The notes under the pieces are model-generated. The model was not told where the DNA came from. It saw only the letters and a list, made by a program, of their open reading frames with translations, and ran no database searches. From Desulfobulbales bacterium (lineage in GTDB: Bacteria > Desulfobacterota > Desulfobulbia > Desulfobulbales > JAGXFP01), in assembly GCA_029210665.1 (NCBI GenBank), contig JARGFN010000001.1, forward strand, positions 1-44,944: DNA of 44,944 bases. The letters run 5' to 3'. Positions 1 to 41,912 of the stretch are shown here, in pieces. Within the stretch, counting starts at the first letter, position 1; every line of letters begins with the position of its first letter. A program made the translations under genes and the position numbers.

Positions 1-3
1 CCC

Positions 4-52
4 ACAGGGCATAAGTTTCGTACGAGCAGACAAGCTGCTCAACTCAGCTTTA
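4..52 (+). repeat. Dispersed repeat family R2, copy 1 (may be cut by the window edge)
   Basis: Read directly: acagggcATAAGTTTCGTacgaGCAGACAAGCTGCTCAACTCAGCTTTA. Related copies lie at 29653-29699 (+) and 40242-40309 (-). It ends 48 nt before the trpS ATG. Confidence 0.6.
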
Positions 53-99
53 ATCCTTGAGCAATGGAGGGCGCGGGGCAACCCCGGCCATAACTTCGC

Positions 100-1065
100 A
101 TGAGAGTATTATCCGGCATCCAGCCATCCGGAAAACTGCATATCGGCAATTATTTCGGGATGATGCAACCCATGCTCGACAACATGGGCAAGAGCGATCT
201 TTTCGCCTTTGTCGTCGACCTCCATGCCCTTACCTCGGTTCATGACCGGGACCGTCTGGCCCGGGACACCTTCGGGGCCGCTGCCGACTTCCTTGCCCTG
301 GGCCTCGATCCCGACCAATGCACTTTCTGGGTCCAGAGCGATGTCCCCGAAGTAACCGAACTGACCTGGGTGCTATCCACCCTGACCCCGATGGGATTAC
401 TCGAACGCTGCCACTCCTACAAGGACAAGGTGGCCAAGGGGATCGACGCCAACCACGGCCTGTTTGCCTACCCGGTCCTGATGGCGGCCGACATTCTGCT
501 TTATCAGGCCGACATGGTGCCGGTCGGCAAGGATCAGAAGCAGCATATCGAGGTGGCCCGCGATATCGCCGGCAAGTTCAACCACACCTTCGGCGAAACC
601 TTCACCATTCCAGAGCCGGTGATCAGCAAGGAACTGGCCACCGTGCCCGGCCTGGACGGCCAGAAGATGTCAAAGTCATACGGCAATACAATCTCCATTT
701 TTCTGGATGAAAAGGAACTCAAGAAAAGAGTGATGGCCATCGTCACCGACGCCACCCCGGTCGAGGACCCCAAGGATCCCGACAGATGCAATCTTTTCAA
801 TATTTTCAAGTTGTTCGCGCCCGAAGACAGATTGCGGGAGGTTCACGGCCTTTACTTGAACGGCGGGGCCATGTACGGCAAGATCAAGCTGGAGCTGGTC
901 GATCTGATCTGGGAATACTTCAGAGCGGCCAGGGAGAAGCGGGACAGACTGGAGAACGACAAGGATTACGTAAGACAGATATTGGCCAGGGGCGCGACCA
1001 AGGCCCGCGAGCAGGCGTCCGTTACCCTTGAGCTGGTCAGAGAGCGGGTCGGTTTCAAGTACTGA
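100..1065 (+). CDS. trpS: Tryptophan--tRNA ligase
   Basis: 321-aa ORF with class I aaRS signatures: HIGH-type motif (SGKLHIGNYFG) and KMSKS (DGQKMSKSYGN). Length is typical of bacterial TrpRS. Confidence 0.95.
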   Translation: MRVLSGIQPSGKLHIGNYFGMMQPMLDNMGKSDLFAFVVDLHALTSVHDRDRLARDTFGAAADFLALGLDPDQCTFWVQSDVPEVTELTWVLSTLTPMGLLERCHSYKDKVAKGIDANHGLFAYPVLMAADILLYQADMVPVGKDQKQHIEVARDIAGKFNHTFGETFTIPEPVISKELATVPGLDGQKMSKSYGNTISIFLDEKELKKRVMAIVTDATPVEDPKDPDRCNLFNIFKLFAPEDRLREVHGLYLNGGAMYGKIKLELVDLIWEYFRAAREKRDRLENDKDYVRQILARGATKAREQASVTLELVRERVGFKY

Positions 1066-1098
1066 TGCGTTAAAAAATTCAAAGTGTGTTCCAGGGGC

Positions 1099-1127
1099 AA
1101 GGCGGATGATTGGCGATCCGCCTTTTG
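1099..1127 (+). terminator. Rho-independent terminator after trpS
   Basis: Stem AAGGCGGAT / ATCCGCCTT with an 8-nt loop, running into TTTTGC, 34 nt after the trpS stop. Confidence 0.6.
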
Positions 1128-1191
1128 CATGTCGTGGGATAGTTTATCGTTCCTTTTTAATCCCCTTAACCAATTTCGGAGAACCTGTGCA

Positions 1192-1626
1192 ATGGTAAAA
1201 ACCGATTCCGGCCCCGACCTAAATTGGGTCATCCTGTTCAGCTGCTGGCTGATAGTCACCGCTTCGACCTTGGGAAGTCTGTTTTTCAGCTCCGTCATGG
1301 GCTTTGCCCCCTGCGTGTTGTGCTGGTATCAGCGCATATTTTTATTCCCCCTGGTGATAGTTCTGGCCCTTGGTCTTTTTCCCTTCGATAAAAATGTCGT
1401 GAAATATGCCATGCCTTTGGCCATATTCGGGTTTTTAACCGCCGTCTATCACAACCTGTTGTATACCGGAATCATCCCTGAAAAAATCCAGCCGTGCAGT
1501 CAGGGCGTTTCATGTACGGAGGACTATATCAGTTTGTTCGGGTTTTTGACCATCCCCATGCTTTCCCTGCTTTCGTTTTCAACAATTATCGCCCTTTTAA
1601 TTATTCTGAAGAGGAGAATTTTCTAA
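1192..1626 (+). CDS. DsbB/BdbC-family disulfide bond formation membrane protein
   Basis: The ORF track starts at GTG 1084, but that start would read through the trpS terminator. ATG 1192 is preceded by GGAG. Multi-TM protein with CxxC (APCVLCWYQRI) and a second Cys pair (CSQGVSC), the layout I associate with BdbC-type DsbB. Confidence 0.75.
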   Translation: MVKTDSGPDLNWVILFSCWLIVTASTLGSLFFSSVMGFAPCVLCWYQRIFLFPLVIVLALGLFPFDKNVVKYAMPLAIFGFLTAVYHNLLYTGIIPEKIQPCSQGVSCTEDYISLFGFLTIPMLSLLSFSTIIALLIILKRRIF

Positions 1627-2289
1627 GTGAAATATATAATTTTTGGCTTCGCCTGCGTCGTTTTGTTCTTTATCTTTGTGTTGGCCAGTAGCTACTACAA
1701 GGGAAAACAGCTTGAAAAATACGGCTTCATGGCCAGGGAAAACGCCGAATTATTCGTAAAAGACCATTCCCCAACGCTGGGCAGCGCTGATGCGAAAGTC
1801 TATCTAGTTGAGTTTATGGACCCGGCATGTGAAACCTGTGCCGCTTTTTCCCCTTTGGTCAAGCGAATCATGGATGCCAACCCCGGTAAAATCAGACTTG
1901 TCCTGCGCTATGCCCCCTTTCATGACGGCGCCGATTATTTTGTCAAAATTCTCGAAGCGGCCAGAAAGCAGGGAAAGTACGAGAAGACTCTGGATATCAT
2001 GTATAAGTCGCAGCCATACTGGGCCAGTCACCACAATCCGCAACCCGAGAAGATCTGGCAATTTCTCCGCGAGTCGGGACTCGATCTGGAGCAGCTCAAG
2101 GAGGATATGAATGACCCGGCCATCGAGAAAATCATCGTCCAGGATCTTGCCGATGCCAAAACGCTTAATGTGCGAAAAACGCCGGGGTTCTTTGTCAACG
2201 GCCGACCTCTCCAAACCTTCGGCTACCAGCAATTGCAGGGTTTGATTTATTCTGAAATCAAGGCGAATTACTATCAGGATCAGGATTAG
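1627..2289 (+). CDS. DsbA-family thiol:disulfide oxidoreductase, membrane-anchored
   Basis: 220 aa with an N-terminal TM helix and a thioredoxin-type CxxC (FMDPACETCAAF). The GTG start abuts the upstream stop, which suggests translational coupling with the DsbB-like gene. Confidence 0.75.
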   Translation: MKYIIFGFACVVLFFIFVLASSYYKGKQLEKYGFMARENAELFVKDHSPTLGSADAKVYLVEFMDPACETCAAFSPLVKRIMDANPGKIRLVLRYAPFHDGADYFVKILEAARKQGKYEKTLDIMYKSQPYWASHHNPQPEKIWQFLRESGLDLEQLKEDMNDPAIEKIIVQDLADAKTLNVRKTPGFFVNGRPLQTFGYQQLQGLIYSEIKANYYQDQD

Positions 2290-2361
2290 CGAAATTCTTT
2301 TTAAGCACTAAGGGCGGGGTATAAATTTCAATAAACCAAATTATCGGAGCTACTGTTGCTT

Positions 2362-2868
2362 ATGAAAAAACTACCATTTATGTTTTTGTTTTTTGGCATG
2401 CTTTTGTTGATTACCGCCTGCGGCAAGGGGCCGCAAGTGGCGGAAGTCGGGAAGCAGGCCCCGGACTTTTCACTTGTCGACCTGGACGGCAAGCCCTGGA
2501 CCCTCTCGGACCTTAAGGGCCAGGTGGTTTTCGTTAATTTCTGGGCGACCTGGTGCCCGCCCTGCCGCGAAGAGATGCCGTCCATGCAAAAACTTTACAC
2601 AACCCTGCCCAAGGACAAGTTCAAAATGCTGGCAATCCTCAATAAGGACAAACCCGAAGTGGCGCGAACCTTTGCGGCGAAACGAGGACTTACCATGCCC
2701 ATTCTAAACGATCAGGACAACAAGGTCGGCCCGAAGTACGGCCTGACCGGACTGCCCGAGACCTTTATAATTGATAAAACCGGCGTACTGCGAAACAAGG
2801 TGGTCGGCCCGGCCCAATGGGACTCCCCCGCCGTTGAGCGGATGCTGCGCCATTACATTAATCAGTGA
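2362..2868 (+). CDS. TlpA/ResA-like thiol-disulfide oxidoreductase lipoprotein
   Basis: Lipobox (LLLITAC) and thioredoxin motif WATWCPPCREEMP. I prefer ATG 2362 over the TTG 2356 used by the ORF track. Confidence 0.8.
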   Translation: MKKLPFMFLFFGMLLLITACGKGPQVAEVGKQAPDFSLVDLDGKPWTLSDLKGQVVFVNFWATWCPPCREEMPSMQKLYTTLPKDKFKMLAILNKDKPEVARTFAAKRGLTMPILNDQDNKVGPKYGLTGLPETFIIDKTGVLRNKVVGPAQWDSPAVERMLRHYINQ

Positions 2869-2883
2869 TTAGCCGGCCAGAAA

Positions 2884-3711
2884 TTATTTTTTGGTGCTCG
2901 AACTATCGGCGGCGGCCAGACAAACCAGTTCTCCGACCGCATCCTGCCGGGCGACGGAAAGAGAAAATCCACGGTGCGCCCCGGCGGCAAGATCGTACTC
3001 CTGCAAATATCCCTCCACGGTGGTTCTGACCAGATCGTGGCTGTTATTGGTCTCGCTGACATGGGCCAGCACCACATGTTTAAGTCCGTTATGAATAAGC
3101 TCGACCAGGAAGCTGGCGGCGGCGGTGTTGGTCAAATGGCCCGATTTTGAGCGGATTCTCTGCTGGAGGGAGGGGGGATAGCCGCCGTTTTTGAGCATTT
3201 CTGGGTCGTGGTTGCACTCCAGGACCAGACCGTTGCACCCCCCCAGATGATGAGACATCAGATGGGAAATCGACCCGGTATCGGTACAGTAACCGACCGA
3301 GAACTCACCGTTACCGACCACGAATCCCAAGGTGTCAACGGCATCGTGGCAAACCGCGAAGGGATGAATCGTCAGCTGCCGATGGCTGAAAACCAGGCCG
3401 GCTTCAATGGGCCGCCATTCGAAAACCCCGGCCAGGGACTTGCCGGCCGCTTCCCGGGTCGCCTTGCTGACGTAAACCGGCAGGGAATAGCGCCGGGAAA
3501 GCACCTGGACCCCGCGGATATGGTCGCCATGCTCATGGGTGACGAGCAGGGCCGAAATCGTGGCAATATCGATCCCGATCGCGGCCAGCCGCCGTTCGAC
3601 CTCGACTCCGGAAAATCCGGCGTCGAGCAGAATCCGCGTTTCGCCCGCCTCGACAAAGGTCGCGTTGCCCCTGCTGCCACTGCCCAGAACGCAGAATCTC
3701 ATCTTCGGCAA
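2884..3711 (-). CDS. MBL-fold metallo-hydrolase
   Basis: 275 aa with the HxHxDH signature (LLVTHEHGDHIRG) and an N-terminal LGSGSRGNAT motif typical of the beta-lactamase fold family. Confidence 0.8.
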   Translation of the reverse strand: MPKMRFCVLGSGSRGNATFVEAGETRILLDAGFSGVEVERRLAAIGIDIATISALLVTHEHGDHIRGVQVLSRRYSLPVYVSKATREAAGKSLAGVFEWRPIEAGLVFSHRQLTIHPFAVCHDAVDTLGFVVGNGEFSVGYCTDTGSISHLMSHHLGGCNGLVLECNHDPEMLKNGGYPPSLQQRIRSKSGHLTNTAAASFLVELIHNGLKHVVLAHVSETNNSHDLVRTTVEGYLQEYDLAAGAHRGFSLSVARQDAVGELVCLAAADSSSTKK

Positions 3712-3743
3712 ATGTCCATTAGCTTAAGGAAGGTCGACAGATA

Positions 3744-3759
3744 CTGATATACCTGGATC
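3744..3759. repeat. 16-nt exact repeat CTGATATACCTGGATC (second copy at 36206-36221)
   Basis: Read directly. Both copies are intergenic. Confidence 0.5.
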
Positions 3760-3776
3760 GCATCAAGGCCCGGCGA

Positions 3777-4262
3777 TCATAATCCGGTATGGCCAAAGCC
3801 CCCATCCTGGCGGACGGTAACGTCGAGTTCCCCTACCTCCTCCACCTCGGCCGGGAGAACGGGGGCCACCACCAGCTGGGCGATCCGGTCATGCCGGTTG
3901 ATCGTAAACGGCTCGCCGCCGAGATTAATCAGCCCGACCATGATCTCGCCGCGATAGTCGGCATCAATGGTGCCAGGGGCGTTGACCACCGTGATTCCAT
4001 GCTTGATCGCCAGGCCGCTCCGCTGTCTGACCTGGATTTCATAACCCGCCGGGATGGCCACGGCAAAGCCGGTGGGCAGCATCCTGATCGCCCCGGCTTC
4101 CATGATCACCGGCTCCGGCACGGCGGCCCGCACATCCATGCCGGCCGCCAATTCCGAATGATAGACGGGCAGGGCCATGTCACCATCCTCCGCCGGCCGC
4201 AGCCGGCAGAATTTGACCTTCAGCCGTTGCCGGCATGCTGCGCCGCTCCCCTCCTCGACCAT
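3777..4262 (-). CDS. dut: dUTP diphosphatase
   Basis: dUTPase motifs AGMDVRA and GTIDADYRGEIMV. I chose the start at ATG 4262 (RBS AGGAG 7 nt upstream) over 4385, because 4385 would overlap the upstream M16 peptidase gene. Confidence 0.9.
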   Translation of the reverse strand: MVEEGSGAACRQRLKVKFCRLRPAEDGDMALPVYHSELAAGMDVRAAVPEPVIMEAGAIRMLPTGFAVAIPAGYEIQVRQRSGLAIKHGITVVNAPGTIDADYRGEIMVGLINLGGEPFTINRHDRIAQLVVAPVLPAEVEEVGELDVTVRQDGGFGHTGL

Positions 4263-4342
4263 ACCCCCACTCCTGATTTTATTTTGCCGCCAAGGACGGG
4301 ATGAGGCGCCCGGGTCCGGCCCATCTCCCCTCCCGAAACATT

Positions 4343-5590
4343 TCATGCGTTCATCAATTTTGCCGAAATCGGCCCGACGACACACATCGGCAGATGCTCT
4401 TCGGCAAAAAGCGCCCCGGCCAGCTCATTGATCCCCTCGCGCCTGACTCCGGCGATGGCATCGGTCAATTCTTCGATGGACAGATAGCGGCCGAATGAGA
4501 ATTCGTTCTTGGCCAGACTGACCATCCGCACTTCCATGTTCTCGGCGGCCAGATAGATCCCTCCCCTGGCATACTCGGCGGCCCCGGCCAGCTCGGCTTC
4601 GGTGATCCCCTCCAGGCGCAGTTTTGCAAGCTCCTTGTGGATCAGTTCCACCGCTTGCGTCCAGGAGCCGGGATCCACGCCAAGATAGATGCCGGTGTAG
4701 CCACTGTCGGAATTCGTCGAAAGATAGGAGAAAACCGAATAGGCAAGCCCCCTTTTCTCCCGGATTTCCTGAAAGAGCCGGGAACTCATATTACCGCCCA
4801 GAATACTGTTTAAAAGAAGATGCTTGTAGCGATCAGGCGAATCGACCGGCAGGCCGGTGGTTCCCATGACCGTGTGGGCCTGTTCGAGAGAACGCTCGAC
4901 TATTCGTCTGGCCCCGAAACTGTCCGGCTGGGGCGGGCGCCGTTCGGGCGGCCGTTCATCGGCCGGGGGGGCCATTTTGAAACGGTTCCGGCACAATTCG
5001 GCAAAACTCCGGTGATCGACATTACCGGCCGCCGCGATCACAATGCGCTCCGGTCGGTAATTGACGCGGACGAACTCGGTCAACCTTTTGCAATCCAGAG
5101 CGGAAACCACCTCGCCCCGGCCCAGAACGGGATTGGCGAGTCCGTGCCCCCGCCAGTACAGGGCGGAAAACATTTCGTGAACCAGATCGTCCGGAGTATC
5201 CTCGACCATGGCGATTTCCTGTAAAATCACCTGGCGCTCCCGGTCAATCTCCTCCGGGGCAAAGGCCGAGTTTAGAAAAAGATCGGCCAGCAGCTCGACC
5301 GCGGCACCCAGACGATCATCGATAACGGTAAGGTAGAAGCAGGTATGTTCAGCGGAGGTAAAAGCGTTGGACATGCCGCCCAGCATGTCCAACTCCTTGG
5401 CGATCTGTTGGGCACTCCGGAGCCGGGTACCCTTGAAAAACATATGCTCGACAAAATGGGCGGTGCCGTTATTGCAATCATCCTCGTCCCGCGACCCGAT
5501 CTCAACCCAGATTCCGATGGAAACCAGGCGGGAAGGCAGGCGCTCGGTGACGATTCTGAGCGAGTTGTCGAGAACGGTCTTTTTATACAT
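4343..5590 (-). CDS. M16 (pitrilysin/insulinase) family zinc peptidase
   Basis: 415 aa with the inverted zinc motif HxxEH (GTAHFVEHMFFKGT). Confidence 0.85.
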   Translation of the reverse strand: MYKKTVLDNSLRIVTERLPSRLVSIGIWVEIGSRDEDDCNNGTAHFVEHMFFKGTRLRSAQQIAKELDMLGGMSNAFTSAEHTCFYLTVIDDRLGAAVELLADLFLNSAFAPEEIDRERQVILQEIAMVEDTPDDLVHEMFSALYWRGHGLANPVLGRGEVVSALDCKRLTEFVRVNYRPERIVIAAAGNVDHRSFAELCRNRFKMAPPADERPPERRPPQPDSFGARRIVERSLEQAHTVMGTTGLPVDSPDRYKHLLLNSILGGNMSSRLFQEIREKRGLAYSVFSYLSTNSDSGYTGIYLGVDPGSWTQAVELIHKELAKLRLEGITEAELAGAAEYARGGIYLAAENMEVRMVSLAKNEFSFGRYLSIEELTDAIAGVRREGINELAGALFAEEHLPMCVVGPISAKLMNA

Positions 5591-5714
5591 GGTTAGGCCA
5601 GATTACGGCCTAAGCCGTTGTCAAAAAACAACATGGCCGTTTTAGACAGTTGGACGGCATAAGGAGTCGTACAGAAGAGCTGGACAAATTGGCCATGTTA
5701 TTCCTGAACGGCTC

Positions 5715-7796
5715 CTAATCTTCCAGAAGGGCTTTGCGACTGAGACGAATCTTGCCGCGCTGGTCGATATTCAACACCTTGACCTTGATGATATCACCTT
5801 CCTTGACCACATCGGTCACATTCTCGACCCGTTTGGTATCAAGCTCGGAGATATGGACCAGACCGTCGGTGCCGGGCATAATCTCGACAAAAGCGCCGAA
5901 ATCGACGACCTTCTGGACCTTGCCGGTATAAACCTTGCCGATCTCGGCCTCTTCGGTAATCGACTTGATCTTCTCGGTAACCTCGTCGCCGACCCTGCCG
6001 TCGGGCGCGAAAATGCTGACCTTGCCGGAATCCTCGACATCGATCTTGACGCCGTATTCGGCACTAAGCCCCTTGATGACCTTGCCGCCGGGGCCGATCA
6101 GGTCACGGATCTTGTCCGGATTGATCTGCAGGCTGAAGATCTTCGGGGCATGCGCGGGCAAATCCGCCCGATGGGTGCCGATACCCTCGCTCATCTTGCC
6201 GAGGATATGGAGACGACCTTCCCTGGCCTGGCCGAGGGCCCGGCTCATGATCTCCCTGGAGACCCCGGCGATCTTGATATCCATCTGCAGGGCGGTGATA
6301 CCCTCGTCGGTGCCGGTTACCTTGAAATCCATGTCGCCGAGATGGTCCTCGTCGCCAAGGATATCGGAGAGGACAATGACCTTGTCTTCTTCCTTAATCA
6401 AACCCATGGCCACTCCGGCCACCGGTTTTTTGATCGGCACCCCGGCATCCATCAGCGCCATGCTGCCGCCGCAGACGGTTGCCATCGACGAGGAACCATT
6501 CGATTCGGTAACCTCGGAAACGATCCGCAGGGTGTAGGGGAATCCCTCGCGATCGGGCAGCACCGCCTTGATGGCCCTGGTTGCCAAAGCGCCGTGGCCA
6601 ATGTCGCGCCGGCTGGGTCCGCGCAGAAAGCGGACTTCTCCAACACAATAAGGGGGAAAGTTGTAATGAAGCATGAAGGGATTAAAGTCCATCCCGTAGA
6701 GGGACTCGACCCGCTGCTCGTCTTCGCCACTGCCTAAAGTAGCGGTGACGATGGCCTGGGTTTCGCCGCGGGTGAAGAGGGCGGAACCGTGGACCATCGG
6801 CAGGGCGCCAACTTCGCAGGTGATCGGCCGGATTTCGTCCATCCGCCGCCCGTCGATCCGGGCATTGTCCTTGACGATCCGGTCGCGCATCATCTGCTTG
6901 TTCAGATCCTTGAAATAACCCTTGATCTCGGACTCGGACTCGGGAAACTCCTCGGCCAGGGCCGCAACCACCCGCGACTGCAATTCTTTCTGGGCCGCAC
7001 TGCGCGCGATTTTGTCGACGGTGGTGATCACCTGGACCATGTCGGCGGCGGCGACCTCGGCCACCCTCTTCCGCAACTCCTCGTTGACCGGTTTGAGCTC
7101 GACCGTCATTTTGGCCTTGCCGACCGCCTCGCGCATCTCCTCCTGAATCTTGAGAATCGGCTGCAGGTTCTCGTGGCCGAAGAAGATCCCGGCCAGGACC
7201 TCTTCCTCGGAAAGGCTGTCGGTGCCGCCCTCGACCATGACTACCGCCTCTTTGGAACCGGCGACGATCAGATCCATCCGGGAATCGGCAAGTTGATCCT
7301 TGGTCGGGTTTAAAATGTATTCGCCGTCGATGTAACCGACCCGGACCCCGGCTATCGGGCCTTGGAAGGGGATGTCCGAGATACCCAGGGCGCAGGAGGC
7401 GCCGATCATGGCCAGCATATCGGGATCGTTCAGTTTGTCGGCCGAAAGGACCGTGCCGATCACCTGGGTCTCGTTCTGGTACCCTTCGGCAAACAGGGGC
7501 CTGAGCGGCCGATCGATAAACCGGCAGGTCAGGGTCTCTTTTTCGGTCGGCCGGCCGATTTCACGTCTGAAGAAGCTGCCCGGGATGCGGCCCACGGAAT
7601 AAAAACGCTCCTGATACTCAACGGTCAGGGGCAGAAAATCAACATTCGGATTAGGTTCCTTGGCGGCGGTGGCGGTGACCAGCACCACGGTGTCGCCGTA
7701 GGTAACCACTACCGCGCCGCCGGCCTGCTTGGCGATCCGGCCGGTTTCAATGGCGAGGGTCCGCCCGCCTATTTCTACTTCCACTTTCTTATACAT
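5715..7796 (-). CDS. pnp: Polyribonucleotide nucleotidyltransferase (PNPase)
   Basis: 693 aa with two RNase PH-like halves, a KH region and a C-terminal S1 domain (GKVYTGKVQKVVDFGAFVEIMPGTDGLVHISEL). It sits downstream of rpsO, as is classical. Confidence 0.97.
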   Translation of the reverse strand: MYKKVEVEIGGRTLAIETGRIAKQAGGAVVVTYGDTVVLVTATAAKEPNPNVDFLPLTVEYQERFYSVGRIPGSFFRREIGRPTEKETLTCRFIDRPLRPLFAEGYQNETQVIGTVLSADKLNDPDMLAMIGASCALGISDIPFQGPIAGVRVGYIDGEYILNPTKDQLADSRMDLIVAGSKEAVVMVEGGTDSLSEEEVLAGIFFGHENLQPILKIQEEMREAVGKAKMTVELKPVNEELRKRVAEVAAADMVQVITTVDKIARSAAQKELQSRVVAALAEEFPESESEIKGYFKDLNKQMMRDRIVKDNARIDGRRMDEIRPITCEVGALPMVHGSALFTRGETQAIVTATLGSGEDEQRVESLYGMDFNPFMLHYNFPPYCVGEVRFLRGPSRRDIGHGALATRAIKAVLPDREGFPYTLRIVSEVTESNGSSSMATVCGGSMALMDAGVPIKKPVAGVAMGLIKEEDKVIVLSDILGDEDHLGDMDFKVTGTDEGITALQMDIKIAGVSREIMSRALGQAREGRLHILGKMSEGIGTHRADLPAHAPKIFSLQINPDKIRDLIGPGGKVIKGLSAEYGVKIDVEDSGKVSIFAPDGRVGDEVTEKIKSITEEAEIGKVYTGKVQKVVDFGAFVEIMPGTDGLVHISELDTKRVENVTDVVKEGDIIKVKVLNIDQRGKIRLSRKALLED

Positions 7797-37183: not shown

Positions 37184-37280
37184 TCCACCAACCCACTGAA
37201 TAACGACTAATCCTTCAGGAACCGCTCTACCCGGAAGCAGCTGCCTTGCCCGGCGATCAATACCCCGCATTGACAGTTGA

Positions 37281-38015
37281 TTGATCAAAACACCGTGGAA
37301 ACAAGACCAGATGGACGGCAAAACGACCCCGAAATCGCAACGCCTTAAAAGCGTCGTGCGCGATGAAAGCTGGATCCACAAATGGGTCGGCCGGACCCTG
37401 TTGGTCATTATGGCCGCCGAGTGGATTTTTCTGCTGCTGGATACCCGCTGGCTCTCGATGTTTCTGGTCACCATGATTATCACCGTCCTCATCGCCCCGA
37501 CCCTGTTCCGCGGAAAGATCGACGTTGAAATTCCCGTGGAGTTCCACTTCACGGCCGTTATCTTCATTTTCGCCTCTCTCTACCTCGGAGAAATCCAGAG
37601 TTTTTATCAGCGCTTCTGGTGGTGGGATATCGTCCTCCACGGATCGGCCGGCCTGTTGATGGGGATCACAGGCTTTTTGCTGGTCTATCTTTTGAATGAA
37701 AGCAAACGGGTAGAGCTGCATATGACCCCCGGGTTCATATCCCTGTTCGCGTTTTCGTTTGCGGTAACTATCGGCACCCTCTGGGAAATTTTTGAGTTTT
37801 CCATGGATCAACTCTTTCTCCTCGACATGCAAAAAACAATGCTGGGCGATCCTTCCGGCCTGACCGACACCATGTGGGATATAATCGTCAATGCGCTTGG
37901 CGCATTTATCGTCAGTTTTACGGGATGGCGGTATCTGAAACGCAAAGAGATATTTTTTGTGAGAAATTTGATCGGGAAGTTTATTAAGAAAAACCCATCT
38001 TTGTTTCGCGGATAG
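37281..38015 (+). CDS. Polytopic membrane protein (possibly YjdF/DUF2238-like)
   Basis: 244 aa with ~6 hydrophobic helices, and motifs WWWDIVLHG and TLWEIFEFSMD. I prefer it to the overlapping 253-aa minus-strand ORF, which is charged and His/Gln-rich with no TM pattern. Confidence 0.6.
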   Translation: MIKTPWKQDQMDGKTTPKSQRLKSVVRDESWIHKWVGRTLLVIMAAEWIFLLLDTRWLSMFLVTMIITVLIAPTLFRGKIDVEIPVEFHFTAVIFIFASLYLGEIQSFYQRFWWWDIVLHGSAGLLMGITGFLLVYLLNESKRVELHMTPGFISLFAFSFAVTIGTLWEIFEFSMDQLFLLDMQKTMLGDPSGLTDTMWDIIVNALGAFIVSFTGWRYLKRKEIFFVRNLIGKFIKKNPSLFRG

Positions 38016-38112
38016 CATCCATGCTAAAACTCGGCGGATTCAAAAGTGAAGTGCAACTTTTATAGGTTCAAAAAGAAGTGAGCTGGGGTAATTGCATAAA
38101 AAACGGTTCGGG

Positions 38113-39159
38113 TCAGTTGCCGATAAAACACTGCGGGTCATCGGCCAGCAGATCGGCCCGGCCCCGGGCAAGGGAATGGGCGTAAGCGATCGCCCGGCAA
38201 CCCCGGCAGTGGGCCCATCTCGGACAGGTTCCGCACCGGCCCTTATACTGGCGGCGGTCGCGAAGCTGCGCCAGGACCGCGGAATCCGCCCAGATCTCAC
38301 GCAAGGAATCCTTGCGGACATTGCCCAGCGGAACGGCCAGGCGCCGGCAGGGGGTAACGGTGCCGTCGGGCAGGATCGTCAATCCCGAAATCCCGGCCGC
38401 GCAACCGCCCGTGGCAATTGGTCCGCCATCACCGCTACCCGTGGCCTTGAGCATCTGCGAGGCCACGGGGTCGCCGGTGACGATCTCGACCCCATTGACG
38501 GGCAAGGCAAAAATTGCCTCGTATGTCTCCCGCAGTCTTTCCCGGCCGATCATCCGGTCAACAAGTCCCAGGCCCCGACCGGACGGCACCAGCCGCGAGA
38601 ACCCGAGCCGGTGGACCCCGAGGGCGGCGGCGATTTCCCCCATGTCGCGAAAATTCGCAACATTAATTTCCGATAGCGTGGCGTTCAAAGTCACCTTGAG
38701 TCCGGCCGCGAGAAGATGCGCAATCCCCCGGCGGCAGGCGGCGAAACTTCCCGCGCCCCTGATCGAGTCATGCACCTCTTCCGGGCCCTCAATGCTTACC
38801 TGGACCCCCTTGACGCCAAGATCGGCCAGCCTCGCCGCCCGCCGGCCATCGATCAGGGTGCCGTTGGTAAGGAGATAGACGCCATAGCCGGCTGCGGCCA
38901 TTTCGCCGAGAACCGGCAAAAGATCGGCGCGGAGGAAGGGCTCGCCGCCCGTGATATTGAGGCTCGGCGAAAACTCGATTTGGTAGGTCTCCGTCCAGGT
39001 TTGCAGCATCTCGCTGATTTCAGTCAGCACCGCCCGGATCTCGGCCCGGGAAAGTTCTTCTGTTTTGCCCCCGGTCTGATAGCAGTGTTGACACCGGAGA
39101 TTGCAGCGTTCGGTGAGGTGCCACTGGACAAAGAATTCCTGGGGGCGGTTGCTCGGCAT
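38113..39159 (-). CDS. Radical SAM enzyme with a C-terminal SPASM domain (peptide or cofactor maturase type)
   Basis: CxxxCxxC at residues ~19-26 (ERCNLRCQHCY), a GGEP-like NITGGEPF, and a C-terminal Cys constellation GGCAAG...TPC...GRCGTCPRWAHCRGCRA...DPQC typical of SPASM auxiliary clusters. There is no N-terminal RRE/PqqD-like extension. Confidence 0.85.
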   Translation of the reverse strand: MPSNRPQEFFVQWHLTERCNLRCQHCYQTGGKTEELSRAEIRAVLTEISEMLQTWTETYQIEFSPSLNITGGEPFLRADLLPVLGEMAAAGYGVYLLTNGTLIDGRRAARLADLGVKGVQVSIEGPEEVHDSIRGAGSFAACRRGIAHLLAAGLKVTLNATLSEINVANFRDMGEIAAALGVHRLGFSRLVPSGRGLGLVDRMIGRERLRETYEAIFALPVNGVEIVTGDPVASQMLKATGSGDGGPIATGGCAAGISGLTILPDGTVTPCRRLAVPLGNVRKDSLREIWADSAVLAQLRDRRQYKGRCGTCPRWAHCRGCRAIAYAHSLARGRADLLADDPQCFIGN

Positions 39160-39242
39160 AAAATTTTAACCCTCGGATATAATTAACGGCAGCGTCCAAG
39201 TACCGCGCCTTGTTTCTCGAAGTTTTTGCTTAGCCATAGCAC

Positions 39243-39263
39243 GATTTTTTGCGAGTTTGTCAA
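39243..39263 (-). repeat. Repeat family R3 core, copy c (TTGACAAACTCGCAAAAAATC)
   Basis: Read on the minus strand ~85 nt upstream of the radical SAM start. It carries a TTGACA hexamer. Confidence 0.5.
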
Positions 39264-39283
39264 AAAAACTCGATTACCCCGCG

Positions 39284-39328
39284 GACAAAACCGGCAGATA
39301 CGGAGTCAGCCATGCGTATCTGCCGGTT
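39284..39328 (-). terminator. Intrinsic terminator/attenuator between the 34-aa ORF and the radical SAM gene
   Basis: Minus strand reads AACCGGCAGATACG, a 12-nt loop, CGTATCTGCCGGTT, then TTGTCC: a 14-bp perfect stem with a U-run of ~4. A second small hairpin, GTTGCCG/CGGCAAC, lies at 39336-39351. Confidence 0.6.
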
Positions 39329-39372
39329 GCGCGTTGTTGCCGACCGGCAACCTATTCAGATTTTCAGCCTTT

Positions 39373-39477
39373 TCATTTATGGCAGATTTTGCCCGGATTT
39401 TCTTTAACGGCCTGGCCGAGTTTTGTCCAAAAGGCAGATTCCTTGCGCAGGGCTTCCTTGCTGAGGACCTTCTTCAT
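39373..39477 (-). CDS. Unannotated 34-aa ORF MKKVLSKEALRKESAFWTKLGQAVKENPGKICHK (candidate precursor peptide or small protein)
   Basis: It falls below the ORF-track length cutoff. The ATG is preceded by AAAGGAGGTGATCC with GGAGG at 6-nt spacing. It is on the same strand as the radical SAM/SPASM gene, 213 nt upstream of it, and is followed by a strong hairpin. Confidence 0.55.
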   Translation of the reverse strand: MKKVLSKEALRKESAFWTKLGQAVKENPGKICHK

Positions 39478-39491
39478 GGATCACCTCCTTT
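39478..39491 (-). promoter_or_regulatory. Extended Shine-Dalgarno sequence (14-nt complement of the canonical 16S rRNA 3' tail)
   Basis: The plus strand reads GGATCACCTCCTTT, which equals the conserved 16S 3' end. The minus-strand mRNA is therefore perfectly complementary to it. Confidence 0.7.
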
Positions 39492-39528
39492 GCTGCGGCG
39501 CGGCGGTATGTCGCTTGCCTATGTTGAA

Positions 39529-39558
39529 ATGATCCACCAGGCGGGAATATATTGTCAA
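39529..39558 (-). promoter_or_regulatory. Possible sigma70 promoter for the 34-aa ORF
   Basis: Minus strand reads TTGACA, an 18-nt spacer, then GATCAT, ~50 nt upstream of the ATG. The -10 is weak and this is a motif match only. Confidence 0.3.
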
Positions 39559-39804
39559 TCGAAATTAAAAAGAAGGGGCAAAGGGGGAGCCCTATATTAT
39601 CCCGCCCGCTATCCCTATCCGTCATATTTTGCGGGGCCCACCAAATGCCGAGGCACATAAAAGCCCCTATGTCTCCCTCCATTCTCTTCTCACGCGGGAA
39701 AATACTATGGCGATCAAGGGTTCTGAGTGATTTCCGGAGCATGCCTCCTTCCGGCATGCCTCATGCATTATTTTCTTAATGATTGATTAACAAAAGGAGG
39801 CAAG

Positions 39805-39968: not shown

Positions 39969-40188
39969 CCTGAATCCGTGACGGCTTAGTGCATTAATTC
40001 ACGATATGTGGTTGTTTTTACGTTAAATATAGACAGCGATCCGTGGGGGGTGGAATTCACCCGCCGCCCTGCGGGGCGCCCGATAACGGCGCATCTGCGG
40101 CGTTGGCAACTCGTTGATATACCATTAGTATTATCAACATCGTTGCCGCCTTGCATCTGCACCGTTCTCGAACGCTCACAGATTCAGG
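39969..40188 (+). mobile_element. MITE-A: 220-bp non-autonomous element with 13-bp TIRs and a 5-bp TSD
   Basis: The left end is CCTGAATCCGTGA and the right end TCACAGATTCAGG (12/13 inverted match). It is flanked by direct TTCTC at 39964-39968 and 40189-40193. There is no ORF with coding character inside. Confidence 0.8.
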
Positions 40189-40241
40189 TTCTCTTGCGGG
40201 CTTCACAAAATGCCGGTCGGGCCGGCGGCGAATTTCTCGGA

Positions 40242-40309
40242 TAAGGCTGAGTTGAGCAGTTCGTCTGCTTTTAATGCCCTTTAGGGTGCAAACGAAACTT
40301 ATGACCTGT
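40242..40309 (-). repeat. Dispersed repeat family R2, copy 3 (inverted, with a 22-nt hairpin insertion)
   Basis: Minus strand reads acaggtcATAAGTTTCGT[ttgcaccctaaagggcattaaaa]GCAGACGAACTGCTCAACTCAGCCTTA. The insertion folds as CCCT/AGGG. Confidence 0.6.
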
Positions 40310-40327
40310 AGGTATAAAGGAGGGTTT

Positions 40328-40654
40328 ATGCAAAGGACATTGATTTCAGCGCTGGTCGTGATGTTGTTATTGAGCGCCTGTGCCGTGGTACCCGGCAGGC
40401 GCGGCGGGGTGGAGATGGTCCCGCTATTGCCGCCGGTCGTGGTGCTGGACGTTGAGCCGTACTACGTTCATAATGGCTACCACTACCATTACAGAAACGG
40501 CGCTTGGTTATACTCAACCTCAAGAAATGGACCGTGGCTCGATTTGCCCAGAAGCCATTACCCCAAAGAGGTCAGATACAAGGGTAAAAGGGGAGGGCAG
40601 GGCCGGGGCCGCGACAAGGACAAGGACCGCGACCACGATAACCGTCGCCGCTGA
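40328..40654 (+). CDS. 108-aa lipoprotein with a Tyr/His-rich core and a highly charged RG/KD tail
   Basis: I chose ATG 40328 (RBS AAAGGAGGG 4 nt upstream) over the track start at 40274. Sequence MQRTLISALVVMLLLSAC (lipobox), then YYVHNGYHYHYRNGAWLY, and a tail KGKRGGQGRGRDKDKDRDHDNRRR. Confidence 0.7.
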   Translation: MQRTLISALVVMLLLSACAVVPGRRGGVEMVPLLPPVVVLDVEPYYVHNGYHYHYRNGAWLYSTSRNGPWLDLPRSHYPKEVRYKGKRGGQGRGRDKDKDRDHDNRRR

Positions 40655-40754: not shown

Positions 40755-41432
40755 CTACAACCTGCTCCTTTTCTTCCGGGAAGTCTTGCCGATTATCCAG
40801 CCAAGGAATAATACCCCGGCTCCGGCCAGAAACCATCTGACCGCGCCGGTGCGCATAAGATCGGAATTCTCCGCGGTCAGCGACCGGACTTCCGCGGCAA
40901 GTTTTTCATTGGTCTCCTTGAGAAGATCGCGTTCACTGGTAATTTCCACTACCGCCGCGGAATCCTTCAGCAGGGTGTCATATTTTTCGGTGACCGCGCG
41001 CAGCTCTTCTTTGGTGTCTGCCAGGGCCTGGTTGAATTCGCCGATGTTTCCGGCCAGATCCCCTTGTTCCCGGGAAGACTCGGCCAGTCTCGCCTTGGCC
41101 TGGGCTAATTGGTCCCGAACCTTTTCAAGCTGATTTTCCAGACGGGAGATGATTACGGCTTTGGGGGTCTCCCCGGTGAGGTATTGGGCCAGAACATAGC
41201 CTTCTTCCCCGCTTTCCAGCCTGACTTTGACATATTTGTCCCCTTCCGTCCTTTCGAGGACCTCCATAGGCGTCCCGGTTTTAAGGGTTTTCAATATCTT
41301 GTGCTCGGTGCTGTTGCCCCGGCGGAAGGTGATGACCAGTTGATCGGAAACATACGCCGTTTCCGCCGCGGCAACGGCGGGCAGGAACAGGCAGGCAAAC
41401 AGTAACACTACGAACTTCCGTGAAAATCTCAT
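40755..41432 (-). CDS. SH3b-domain / coiled-coil / C-terminal TM protein (YgiM-like)
   Basis: 225 aa with a signal peptide, an SH3-like segment (YVSDQLVITFRRG...PMEVLE...YVKVRLESGEEGYVLAQYL), a long coiled-coil and a C-terminal TM followed by a basic tail. Confidence 0.75.
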   Translation of the reverse strand: MRFSRKFVVLLFACLFLPAVAAAETAYVSDQLVITFRRGNSTEHKILKTLKTGTPMEVLERTEGDKYVKVRLESGEEGYVLAQYLTGETPKAVIISRLENQLEKVRDQLAQAKARLAESSREQGDLAGNIGEFNQALADTKEELRAVTEKYDTLLKDSAAVVEITSERDLLKETNEKLAAEVRSLTAENSDLMRTGAVRWFLAGAGVLFLGWIIGKTSRKKRSRL

Positions 41433-41670
41433 GATTATCTTTCTCCTGACGGCGTACCGAATTCCGGCGCCATCATGCTTGGTTATTGCAACCGGCTCAA
41501 CAGATCCGCCACTCCCGGCGGGAGGCGGACCACGGCGCGAGCTTTTCTAAAACTGATGACATCGCAAAAAAAATCGAAAATCCCTTCCTGCGACCGGCTC
41601 AGGGTGAGATCCTTTTCCTCCTTTTCCCGCCGCAAACTCCGTACCGGCGGTGATTTATTACATAATTTAA

Positions 41671-41912
41671 CCTGAATCCGTGAGCGTTCGAGAACGGTGC
41701 AGATGCAAGGCGGCAACGATGTTGATAATACTGATGGTATATCAACGAGTTGCCAACGCGGCACCCCAAGGGCACTTCCTGCGGGGCGCAGATGCACCGT
41801 TATCGGGCGCCCCGCAGGGCGGCGGAACCCTGGCAACCCAGGGAAAAACGATTATCTAATGTAAATACGTATTGATAAGTGGAATTCCCCACGAAGCCGT
41901 CACGGATTCAGG
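41671..41912 (-). mobile_element. MITE-B: 242-bp copy of the same element, inverted relative to MITE-A, with its own 5-bp TSD
   Basis: The ends are CCTGAATCCGTGA and TCACGGATTCAGG (13/13). It is flanked by direct TTTAA at 41666-41670 and 41913-41917. An 89-nt block is 87/89 identical to 40100-40188 in reverse complement. Confidence 0.8.

Follow-up and report, generated by a model that had tools for sequence, protein, structure and literature searches.

Known selenopeptide systems and the Desulfobulbales locus

The radical S-adenosylmethionine (SAM) enzyme SbtM modifies a natural selenocysteine (Sec)-containing peptide, forming a thio(seleno)oxazole (PMC9204691), and in substrates of the thioether-forming SPASM maturases PapB and Tte1186, Sec can stand in for Cys; it is bound at an auxiliary cluster, and Se-C bonds are formed (PMC10177961). 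In the 2026 inventory of 119 prokaryotic selenoprotein families that we used for comparison, the SbtA “selenobacteriocin” is the sole entry of the RiPP type (peptides synthesized by the ribosome and modified after translation), and nothing in it has the CxxUxxU motif (U, Sec) described below (PMC13188914). Here we analyze a 44,944-nt stretch of DNA from a Desulfobulbales bacterium (assembly GCA_029210665.1, contig JARGFN010000001.1; hereafter the window, with all coordinates given as window positions), in which a conserved small gene is tightly linked to a gene for a radical SAM/SPASM enzyme with the seven SPASM cysteines; the small gene contains two UGAs in frame, is conserved in the manner of coding sequence through both of them, and is followed by a covarying hairpin similar to the Sec insertion sequence (SECIS) of Escherichia coli fdhF. 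The two genes probably form a cassette that encodes a Sec-containing RiPP-type precursor and the enzyme modifying it; the latter activity we infer from the linkage. Full-text literature searches yielded no description of this family of Sec peptides and radical SAM enzymes, which seems to be a second family of modified peptides that contain selenium, undescribed so far and unrelated to SbtA/SbtM. If this interpretation is correct, it would be the second natural Sec-containing modified-peptide system in the sources checked, after SbtA/SbtM.

The locus resembles SbtA/SbtM in that a short precursor gene with in-frame putative Sec codons and a SECIS lies beside a radical SAM/SPASM gene, and also in the anaerobic, Deltaproteobacteria-type hosts and in the likely presence of two Sec residues (PMC9204691; PMC13188914). 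Unlike SbtM, the enzyme encoded here lacks the N-terminal extension of about 190 residues (its residues 7–331 match positions 197–506 of the 516-position profile, with the cluster motif starting from residue 19), and the proposed Sec residues, unlike those in the GGUG/SGUG motif of SbtA, are found in the K-U-K and G/S-U-K contexts within a C-terminal CxxUxxU. The distribution also differs, extending here to Nitrospirota, Desulfobulbales and Firmicutes; with at least 120 metagenome loci and at least three phyla, the family is much more widespread than SbtA/SbtM. Its distinctive features are a compact enzyme that is devoid of a RiPP recognition element (RRE) and two putative Sec residues that are never replaced by Cys.

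The elements of the locus, all on the minus strand, are the following, in the direction of transcription:

38088–39576 (−): two-gene cassette (promoter, peptide gene, SECIS, hairpin, enzyme), 93–96% identical to contigs L064–L069 of the Joint Genome Institute (JGI)
39529–39558 (−): candidate promoter-like site, TTGACA, 18-nt spacer, GATCAT (consensus scan, 10/12 matches), within the 1.49-kb block common with L064–L069
39478–39491 (−): extended Shine-Dalgarno sequence AAAGGAGGTGATCC, of the AAAAGGAGGTGATCC type, read from the sequence; GGAGG at 39484–39488, 6 nt before the ATG
39352–39477 (−): proposed full selenopeptide gene, 41 codons plus TAG, MKKVLSKEALRKESAFWTKLGQAVKENPGKICHK-U-KG-U-KSE (translation and conservation)
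39373–39477 (−): 34-codon open reading frame (ORF) MKKVLSKEALRKESAFWTKLGQAVKENPGKICHK as first called, its TGA 213 nt upstream of the enzyme ATG
39373–39375 (−): first in-frame TGA, proposed Sec35; TGA in 53/53 loci, never TGC/TGT; 27 nt to the apical loop
39364–39366 (−): second in-frame TGA, proposed Sec38; TGA in 53/53 loci; 9–12 nt before the hairpin in 52/53, the exception being L042
39336–39351 (−): SECIS-like hairpin GTTGCC-GGTC-GGCAAC, directly after the TAG (pairing, covariation, fdhF likeness)
39287–39328 (−): second hairpin, terminator- or attenuator-like, AACCGGCAGATACG...CGTATCTGCCGGTT; 14-bp perfect stem at 39289–39328 and TTTT run at 39287–39290
38113–39159 (−): radical SAM/SPASM enzyme, 348 aa, proposed maturase (Pfam Radical_SAM and SPASM; below all NCBIfam cutoffs)

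A small gene with two conserved in-frame TGAs

Related loci were collected by an enzyme-first genome scan, which gave 62 loci, 56 of them with an orthologue at ≥49% identity and 53 of these 56 at full length (L053, L055 and L061 are enzyme fragments at contig ends, outside the full-length set), and by a motif-first metagenome scan with the pattern TGAAARRGNTGAAARN{7,10}GYTGCYGGT, which gave at least 120 loci, with the family peptide present in about 107 of those listed. The set of 53 peptide-carrying loci used in this and the next section consists of 52 loci from the genome scan and the window, with the peptide detected by tblastn.

The short ORF and its ribosome-binding site are placed exactly as in an earlier note on this DNA, and GGAGGTGA is found 5–8 nt ahead of the start codon in nearly all orthologous loci; the 16S 3' tail that the note had matched to this site over 14 nt lies outside the window. 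The peptide consensus is MKKxLSKKALxKEAAFWxxxKKAxKxNPGKxCHK, with E13, W17, C32 and K34 invariant. The FWTK segment, to which the same note had drawn attention, is not conserved; a Lys-Trp cross-link through it was considered and ruled out, given that only W17 is invariant and the following residues vary. Searches of NCBIfam (release 20 with its curated cutoffs, the profile library used for both genes) with the 34-aa peptide or with the 41-aa form, in which C or X took the place of U, matched no family, TIGR04081 included.

The claim that the product is a 34-residue peptide with a single Cys fares differently, because it depends on the TGA at 39373–39375 being the stop. From the Cys onward, the window continues in frame as TGC CAT AAA TGA AAA GGC TGA AAA TCT GAA TAG, that is, C-H-K-U-K-G-U-K-S-E-stop. 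In loci of different phyla, the DNA just past the first TGA is nearly identical. All 53 loci read, in the same frame, C-x-K-TGA-K-[G/S]-TGA-K-[S/T], with an optional D/E and then TAA, TAG or a third TGA; this true stop, which abuts the hairpin when it is a third TGA, lies 2–3 codons past the second TGA in 52 of the 53. The core motif of the predicted product is accordingly CxxUxxU, at the extreme C-terminus.

The extension past the first TGA evolves like coding sequence. Pairwise comparison of codons gives 414 synonymous and 213 nonsynonymous differences in the frame of the ORF, compared with 80/705 and 357/799 in the two remaining frames, so that synonymous differences prevail only in the ORF's own frame, and the entropy at the three codon positions is 2.02, 1.71 and 4.49, the third position dominating. 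Lys is encoded by AAG or AAA and Gly by GGC, GGT, GGA or GGG, and the codons for Ser40 are AGC/AGT in Nitrospirota and TCT/TCC/TCA in Desulfobulbales. These patterns bear directly on an alternative under which the TGA at 39373–39375 is a true stop, the product is the 34-residue, single-Cys peptide, and the downstream conservation and the hairpin reflect regulation at the RNA level, for example, SelB binding or mRNA stability. Gene callers do terminate the ORF at this TGA, and public databases carry the peptide as a 34-residue hypothetical protein; moreover, a SECIS-like hairpin in noncoding sequence can serve as a regulatory site bound by SelB, one example being the leader of E. coli selAB. 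We nevertheless consider this alternative quite improbable: the codon-position and synonymous-substitution patterns past the TGA fit no other frame, Ser is kept through AGY/TCN switches, a second invariant TGA follows at a fixed codon distance, and the real stop is always just ahead of the hairpin. As judged from the sequences, the TGA at 39373–39375 is most likely not the end of the ORF, and the two UGAs would be read as Sec, yielding a 41-residue selenopeptide.

Two individual loci illustrate the behavior of these codons. The database entry P0137, a 49-aa version of the peptide, reads ...CHKWKSWKSWSCRSATRH (...CHKWKSWKSW), TGA evidently having been translated as Trp, which implies the same in-frame TGAs there and shows that automatic gene calling errs on the peptide gene in more than one way. 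In L042 (4841–4896), an 8-nt deletion removes one TGA-AAG unit; the peptide there is shorter, and its only Sec codon is separated from the hairpin by 13 nt, which maintains the spacing; this may be a natural one-Sec variant.

Among described selenoproteins, the “-star” families (UXX-star, KCU-star, GUXX-star) and the UxxU double selenoproteins resemble the predicted product in architecture, with Sec located a few residues from the true C-terminus, which leads to truncated products in databases, and with two Sec in UxxU, respectively. Unlike the peptide here, the members of these families are longer, many of them metal-binding, glutaredoxin-like or with a thioredoxin fold; they include no 41-residue peptide that has a radical SAM enzyme as its partner, and no sequence match to the peptide was found among them.

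A covarying SECIS-like hairpin straight after the stop codon

Straight after the final stop, every peptide-carrying locus retains a hairpin with a 6-bp stem and the consensus GTTGCY-GGTC-RGCAAC. Across 49 distinct sequences, 99.3% of the cells in the stem are paired, and compensatory changes occur at two of the six stem pairs (26 cells; 6 sequences change U-A to C-G, and 20 change C-G to U-A). In 500 shuffles, neither the observed covariation score nor the percentage of pairing was ever reached, slid controls collapse, and RNAalifold predicts the same SECIS-like helix. With few exceptions among the loci, the apical loop reads GGUC or differs from it only slightly (GGC, GGGC, GGUU, GUC), and the hairpin motif is found once in the window and once per related locus. 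In the window, the loop is 18 nt from the second TGA and 27 nt from the first. Bacterial SECIS searches use a range of 16–37 nt.

The E. coli fdhF SECIS, read from the K-12 genome, consists of TGA, 11 nt and GGTTGCA-GGTC-TGCACC (full hairpin, GGTTGCAGGTCTGCACC). The two elements are alike in the stem of 6–7 bp, the GGUC apical loop and the spacing, with 12 nt past the second UGA here and 11 nt in fdhF. Unlike the fdhF element, the hairpin here has no bulged U, resides in the 3' untranslated region (UTR), straight after the stop codon, and would need to act on two UGAs that are 9 nt apart. According to a 2026 review, bacterial selenoproteins include those with UxxU as well as the “-star” families, in which Sec is a few residues from the C-terminus (PMC13188914); these appear to provide precedent both for one SECIS serving two near UGAs and for a SECIS beyond the stop. 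The same layout is seen in the Sec-containing selD gene (...AAG-U-AAKISPGDL) of L085, one of the loci with a peptide gene, where the UGA is followed, after 11 nt, by a 5-bp hairpin with a G-rich loop. Taken together, in-frame UGAs with coding-type conservation downstream are combined here with a conserved, covarying stem-loop that has a G/U-containing loop and lies at a set distance.

Between this element and the enzyme gene lies the 14-bp perfect hairpin with a short U-run that was reported earlier and is reproduced here, the last two pairs of the stem being formed with the first two T residues of the TTTT run (39287–39290). The region 39280–39376 folds at −36.5 kcal/mol (z = −2.85), and in nearly all loci, a strong hairpin begins about 36–49 nt past the first TGA, with a T-rich tail in 29 of 52. 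The 14-bp hairpin is missing from the output of a simple terminator scan, most likely because that scan allows loops of up to 8 nt and the loop here has 12. The element fits partial termination or a stabilized 3' end that favors the peptide mRNA. An antiterminator formed by pairing of the 5' arm of the SECIS with the 5' arm of the second hairpin was rejected, given that such pairing, judged by eye, fits the window but not a Nitrospirota sequence. The stem GCAGATA...TATCTGC recurs in 19 of the 53 loci, from different phyla, despite loops of 8–42 nt (L001–L061 and the window), and in each case begins about 47–49 nt past the first TGA; such conservation of the stem sequence is greater than expected of an ordinary terminator.

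The radical SAM/SPASM enzyme belongs to no named NCBIfam family

The 348-aa protein matches the Pfam domains Radical_SAM and SPASM (E = 8e-12), with a weak match to Fer4_12. The N-terminal CxxxCxxC and full SPASM set claimed for it in the earlier note are indeed present: C19-x3-C23-x2-C26 and C253, C271, C309, C312, C318, C321 and C344, all ten cysteines being invariant in 42 homologues. Among the scored candidates, 2,160 proteins are homologous at E ≤1e-20, the best 120 being 62–97% identical; those to which a source assigns a name are mostly labeled generically as radical SAM/SPASM proteins and occasionally, in some JGI records, as “AdoMet-dependent heme synthase.”

Had the enzyme belonged to a family other than peptide maturases, a profile score above the cutoff would be expected, and none was obtained. 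The best NCBIfam match is AhbD (TIGR04545; 178.5 bits vs a cutoff of 500), followed by NirJ2 (161 vs 500), ACGX rSAM (153 vs 400), MftC (148.7 vs 265), GeoRSP rSAM (147 vs 400), SbtM (TIGR04082; 126 vs 350), StsB (106 vs 625), PqqE (86.4 vs 381) and PapB (65 vs 340); the enzyme therefore belongs to no named NCBIfam family. An AlphaFold2 model (predicted local distance difference test score, pLDDT, 82.7) has SkfB, SuiB, BlsE, anSME, PqqE and ChlB as the closest PDB folds, with TM-scores of 0.6–0.72; these nearest folds are mostly peptide- or protein-modifying SPASM/twitch enzymes.

AhbD and the enzyme here are similar in length (339 profile positions), contain SPASM and have no RRE; the enzyme here differs in being linked to a putative selenopeptide gene. 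These similarities bring up the reading that it is an ordinary enzyme of the heme or heme d1 pathway, of the AhbD/NirJ type, with the upstream ORF incidental. AhbD being the top profile match, the heme synthase label in some JGI records and one published source (PMC10452713), according to which the host lineages use the siroheme-dependent heme route, would all agree with such a role. This reading is very improbable in view of the score of 178 bits against a cutoff of 500, the lack of adjacent ahb or nir genes in the window or related loci (none of ahbA, ahbB and ahbC is among the neighbors in the window or the 62 related loci), and the co-conservation of the enzyme and the upstream ORF from phylum to phylum, unexpected if that ORF were incidental. 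The AhbD likeness had also suggested that C-H-K might be a single-Cys heme-binding CH motif; this was ruled out because the residue after C32 varies (H, R, Q, L).

As for described maturases, the PapB, Tte1186, SkfB and CteB type shares with this enzyme the fold class and the SPASM cysteine set, acting, however, on natural Cys substrates, unlike the proposed Sec peptide. Maturases of this type have N-terminal RRE-type domains. The MftA/MftC and PqqA/PqqE pairs resemble the present one in that a short peptide with an invariant C-terminal core is encoded just before a SPASM enzyme and shows housekeeping-like rather than diversifying conservation. Unlike the cassette here, which has neither and the core of which would hold Sec, these pairs need a separate RRE protein (MftB, PqqD) and tailoring genes.

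Linkage of the two genes and their distribution

The earlier note had proposed a precursor/maturase pair, to be checked by the synteny of the short ORF beside homologues of the enzyme. This part stands: the peptide gene is upstream of the enzyme gene, on the same strand, in 51 of the 53 full-length loci of the enzyme-first scan. What does not stand is the delimitation of the peptide, in which the two UGAs with their SECIS, the hairpin at 39336–39351, had been missed. In 50 of the 53 loci, tblastn places the peptide 57–380 nt upstream of the enzyme; the 51st, found by eye in L049, from the isolate Desulfotomaculum copahuensis (Firmicutes), is a diverged copy with C-H-K-U-K-S-U-K-A and a hairpin whose loop is GGU. 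The peptide is absent from the six loci in which the enzyme is a distant paralogue (≤35% identity). In the reverse direction, among the listed matches of the motif-first scan, the enzyme is directly downstream in 67 of the 86 loci that have at least 700 nt of downstream sequence, and two more loci are rearranged: in L071, the enzyme is 1.9 kb downstream after an insertion, and in L152, the order is enzyme-YceI-peptide. The pair thus combines a short ORF that is adjacent, co-oriented and co-conserved across taxa with an enzyme carrying CxxxCxxC and the 7-Cys SPASM motif.

The hosts are anaerobic sulfur-cycle bacteria of at least three phyla, including Desulfobulbales/Desulfurivibrionaceae, Nitrospirota (Thermodesulfovibrionales, Dissulfurispiraceae), Syntrophorhabdales and Deferrisomatales, along with the Firmicutes isolate. 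The strong conservation in sulfate- and sulfur-metabolizing anaerobes suggests an unrecognized physiological use of selenium.

Proposed pathway and competing explanations

Under the explanation we favor, SelB and Sec-tRNA would decode both UGAs with the aid of the single hairpin, and the very strong Shine-Dalgarno sequence would offset the inefficiency of Sec decoding. The long hairpin past the SECIS would stop or stabilize most transcripts, so that the peptide mRNA would exceed the enzyme mRNA. The predicted product has 41 residues, with a Lys-rich, presumably helical N-terminal part (invariant E13 and W17) and the C-terminal core C32-x-K-U35-K-G-U38-K-S. Binding of the peptide by the enzyme, devoid of an RRE, would be direct; the auxiliary cluster with an open site would have a side chain of Cys or Sec as its ligand, the hydrogen atom abstracted by the 5'-deoxyadenosyl radical would come from the core, and the outcome could be either Se/S-to-carbon cross-links of the sactipeptide or ranthipeptide type or a seleno-oxazole of the SbtM type.

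Several observations weigh against this explanation. No RRE or PqqD-like domain is detected in the enzyme by Pfam and no PqqD-like protein is a conserved neighbor, as the earlier note had stated; such domains are common, albeit not universal, in the RiPP class. The top sequence matches of the enzyme are the tetrapyrrole enzymes AhbD and NirJ2, far under their cutoffs. The first UGA is 18–21 nt from the hairpin in 52 of the 53 loci, beyond the 11 nt that is optimal in E. coli. A search of 39150–39600 against Rfam with E up to 10 gave nothing meaningful, and no model there fits the hairpin, which says little either way. No Cys-for-Sec variant was found, with neither TGC nor TGT at either position in the 53 loci and none among 28 representative peptides, so that the usual argument from Sec/Cys pairs is missing, although it is not obligatory for a selenoprotein. 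The enzyme orthologue occurs without the peptide in two loci, L017 and L043, and about a dozen metagenome loci, among the matches listed, have the peptide without an adjacent enzyme, including L077, L083, L085, L120 and L128. The window contains none of selA, selB, selC and selD, and for most loci neither do the 10-kb flanks that the search covered. Translation of the gene as proposed, Sec insertion at both UGAs and modification of the product are predictions.

Some of the same observations are shared by the main competing explanation, under which the small selenoprotein does exist but serves the enzyme as a partner instead of a substrate, in the role of a selenium donor, redox shuttle or small subunit, and the enzyme uses something other than a peptide, for example, a tetrapyrrole or a lipid/isoprenoid. 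The similarity to AhbD and NirJ2, the lack of an RRE and the loci where the peptide has no adjacent enzyme would all be compatible with a partner role, as would the recurrent downstream genes linked to lipids or isoprenoids (YceI-like in 17 loci, PEMT/ICMT-like in 8–9), and in free-standing selenoproteins, CxxU and UxxU are typical motifs with a redox function (PMC13188914). On the other hand, every match to a non-peptide family is far under its cutoff, the nearest solved folds belong mostly to enzymes that modify peptides or proteins, a short ORF tightly ahead of a SPASM enzyme on the same strand is the standard precursor/maturase layout, and no gene of another substrate pathway is consistently linked. 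On this evidence, we regard the partner role as unlikely.

Returning to the precursor/maturase explanation, the evidence points to an intracellular redox-active, metal-binding or cofactor-like product, rather than a secreted antibiotic, because the whole peptide is conserved, there is no Cys-for-Sec variant, and no protease or exporter is linked (none is adjacent to the cassette in the window, in agreement with the earlier note). A more specific version, which we find possible if rather doubtful, is that the CxxUxxU core is processed by the radical SAM enzyme into an obligately selenium-containing, peptide-derived small molecule or mini-cofactor with a housekeeping role in redox, antioxidant defense or metal handling in strict anaerobes of several phyla, that is, a selenium counterpart of mycofactocin or PQQ and not an antibiotic. 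If the assignment of the two genes is correct, the database annotations (34-residue hypothetical protein; heme synthase) need correcting. Given that the cassette is 1.5 kb long and its SECIS is close to that of E. coli fdhF, heterologous expression may be feasible, which would provide a small test system for radical SAM chemistry on Se in place of S and for one 3' UTR SECIS serving two near UGAs.

Genomic context

The exact 34-aa peptide is also encoded on the JGI contigs L064–L069, where the gene order is atpG-peptide-enzyme-YceI. The flanks of the cassette in the window are unrelated to those on L064–L069, and the window contains no YceI gene, so that the 1.49-kb block sits as a unit in two genomic contexts; this points to relocation of the cassette or, possibly, a chimeric assembly. 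In L064, a transposase gene lies 2.7 kb downstream of the cassette.

Among the related loci, no neighboring gene is universal. The YceI-like gene is directly downstream in the 17 loci mentioned above, and the membrane methyltransferase of the PEMT/ICMT type overlaps or abuts the stop codon of the enzyme gene in 8; single loci have a Tpx-like, DinB-like or VOC gene downstream, an epimerase-like gene is present in several, and a superoxide dismutase (SOD) gene is near some orphan peptide genes. These neighbors give a weak hint of an association with oxidative stress or lipids. The PEMT/ICMT loci are L016, L019, L020, L022, L023, L053, L054 (by ORF clustering only) and L120, in the last of which the methyltransferase gene directly follows the peptide gene, with no enzyme gene between; upstream, the PEMT/ICMT loci have a conserved 145-aa protein without a Pfam or NCBIfam match and, in some, a SOD gene.

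Two loci tie the peptide gene to selenium metabolism, an anecdotal connection at 2 of about 170 loci. In L085 (Ga0074045_10000890, about 1–4800), it is located beside selD (357 bits vs a cutoff of 125), yedF (204 vs 110) and a cysteine desulfurase/SclA-like gene, and also adjoins a gene for a Fur-like regulator, with no radical SAM gene within 6 kb downstream. In L073 (about 5350–6270), it is convergent with selB (248.5 bits vs 242), which is apparently truncated after 222 residues. No further matches to selB, selD or yedF were found among the approximately 170 loci, and no tRNA-Sec in the window or in 56 loci. In L073, a HAD-like gene also lies immediately upstream of the peptide gene, on the opposite strand; the same HAD-like gene, again on the opposite strand, is just downstream of the peptide gene in L128, where the available stretch contains no selB.

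Beyond the cassette, the window is ordinary core chromosome, with trpS, pnp, infB, nusA, nuo/mrp-type antiporter-like subunits, murC, mreBCD-PBP2-rodA and two tRNAs, the latter being the only Rfam matches in the whole window. Two further ORFs on the strand of the cassette, neither with a Pfam match, look artefactual:

37257–38018 (−): 253-aa ORF, antisense to a 244-aa membrane protein at 37281–38015 (+)
39404–39757 (−): 117-aa ORF, overlapping the peptide gene and the promoter region

Upstream of the cassette, 40061–40190 and 41669–41825 form an inverted repeat, without an Rfam match, that is 97% complementary, consists of two adjoining arm pairs (39 and 95 nt) and brackets about 1.5 kb of DNA encoding a 126-aa lipoprotein-like ORF (40274–40654, +) and a 225-aa SH3-domain protein (40755–41432, −).

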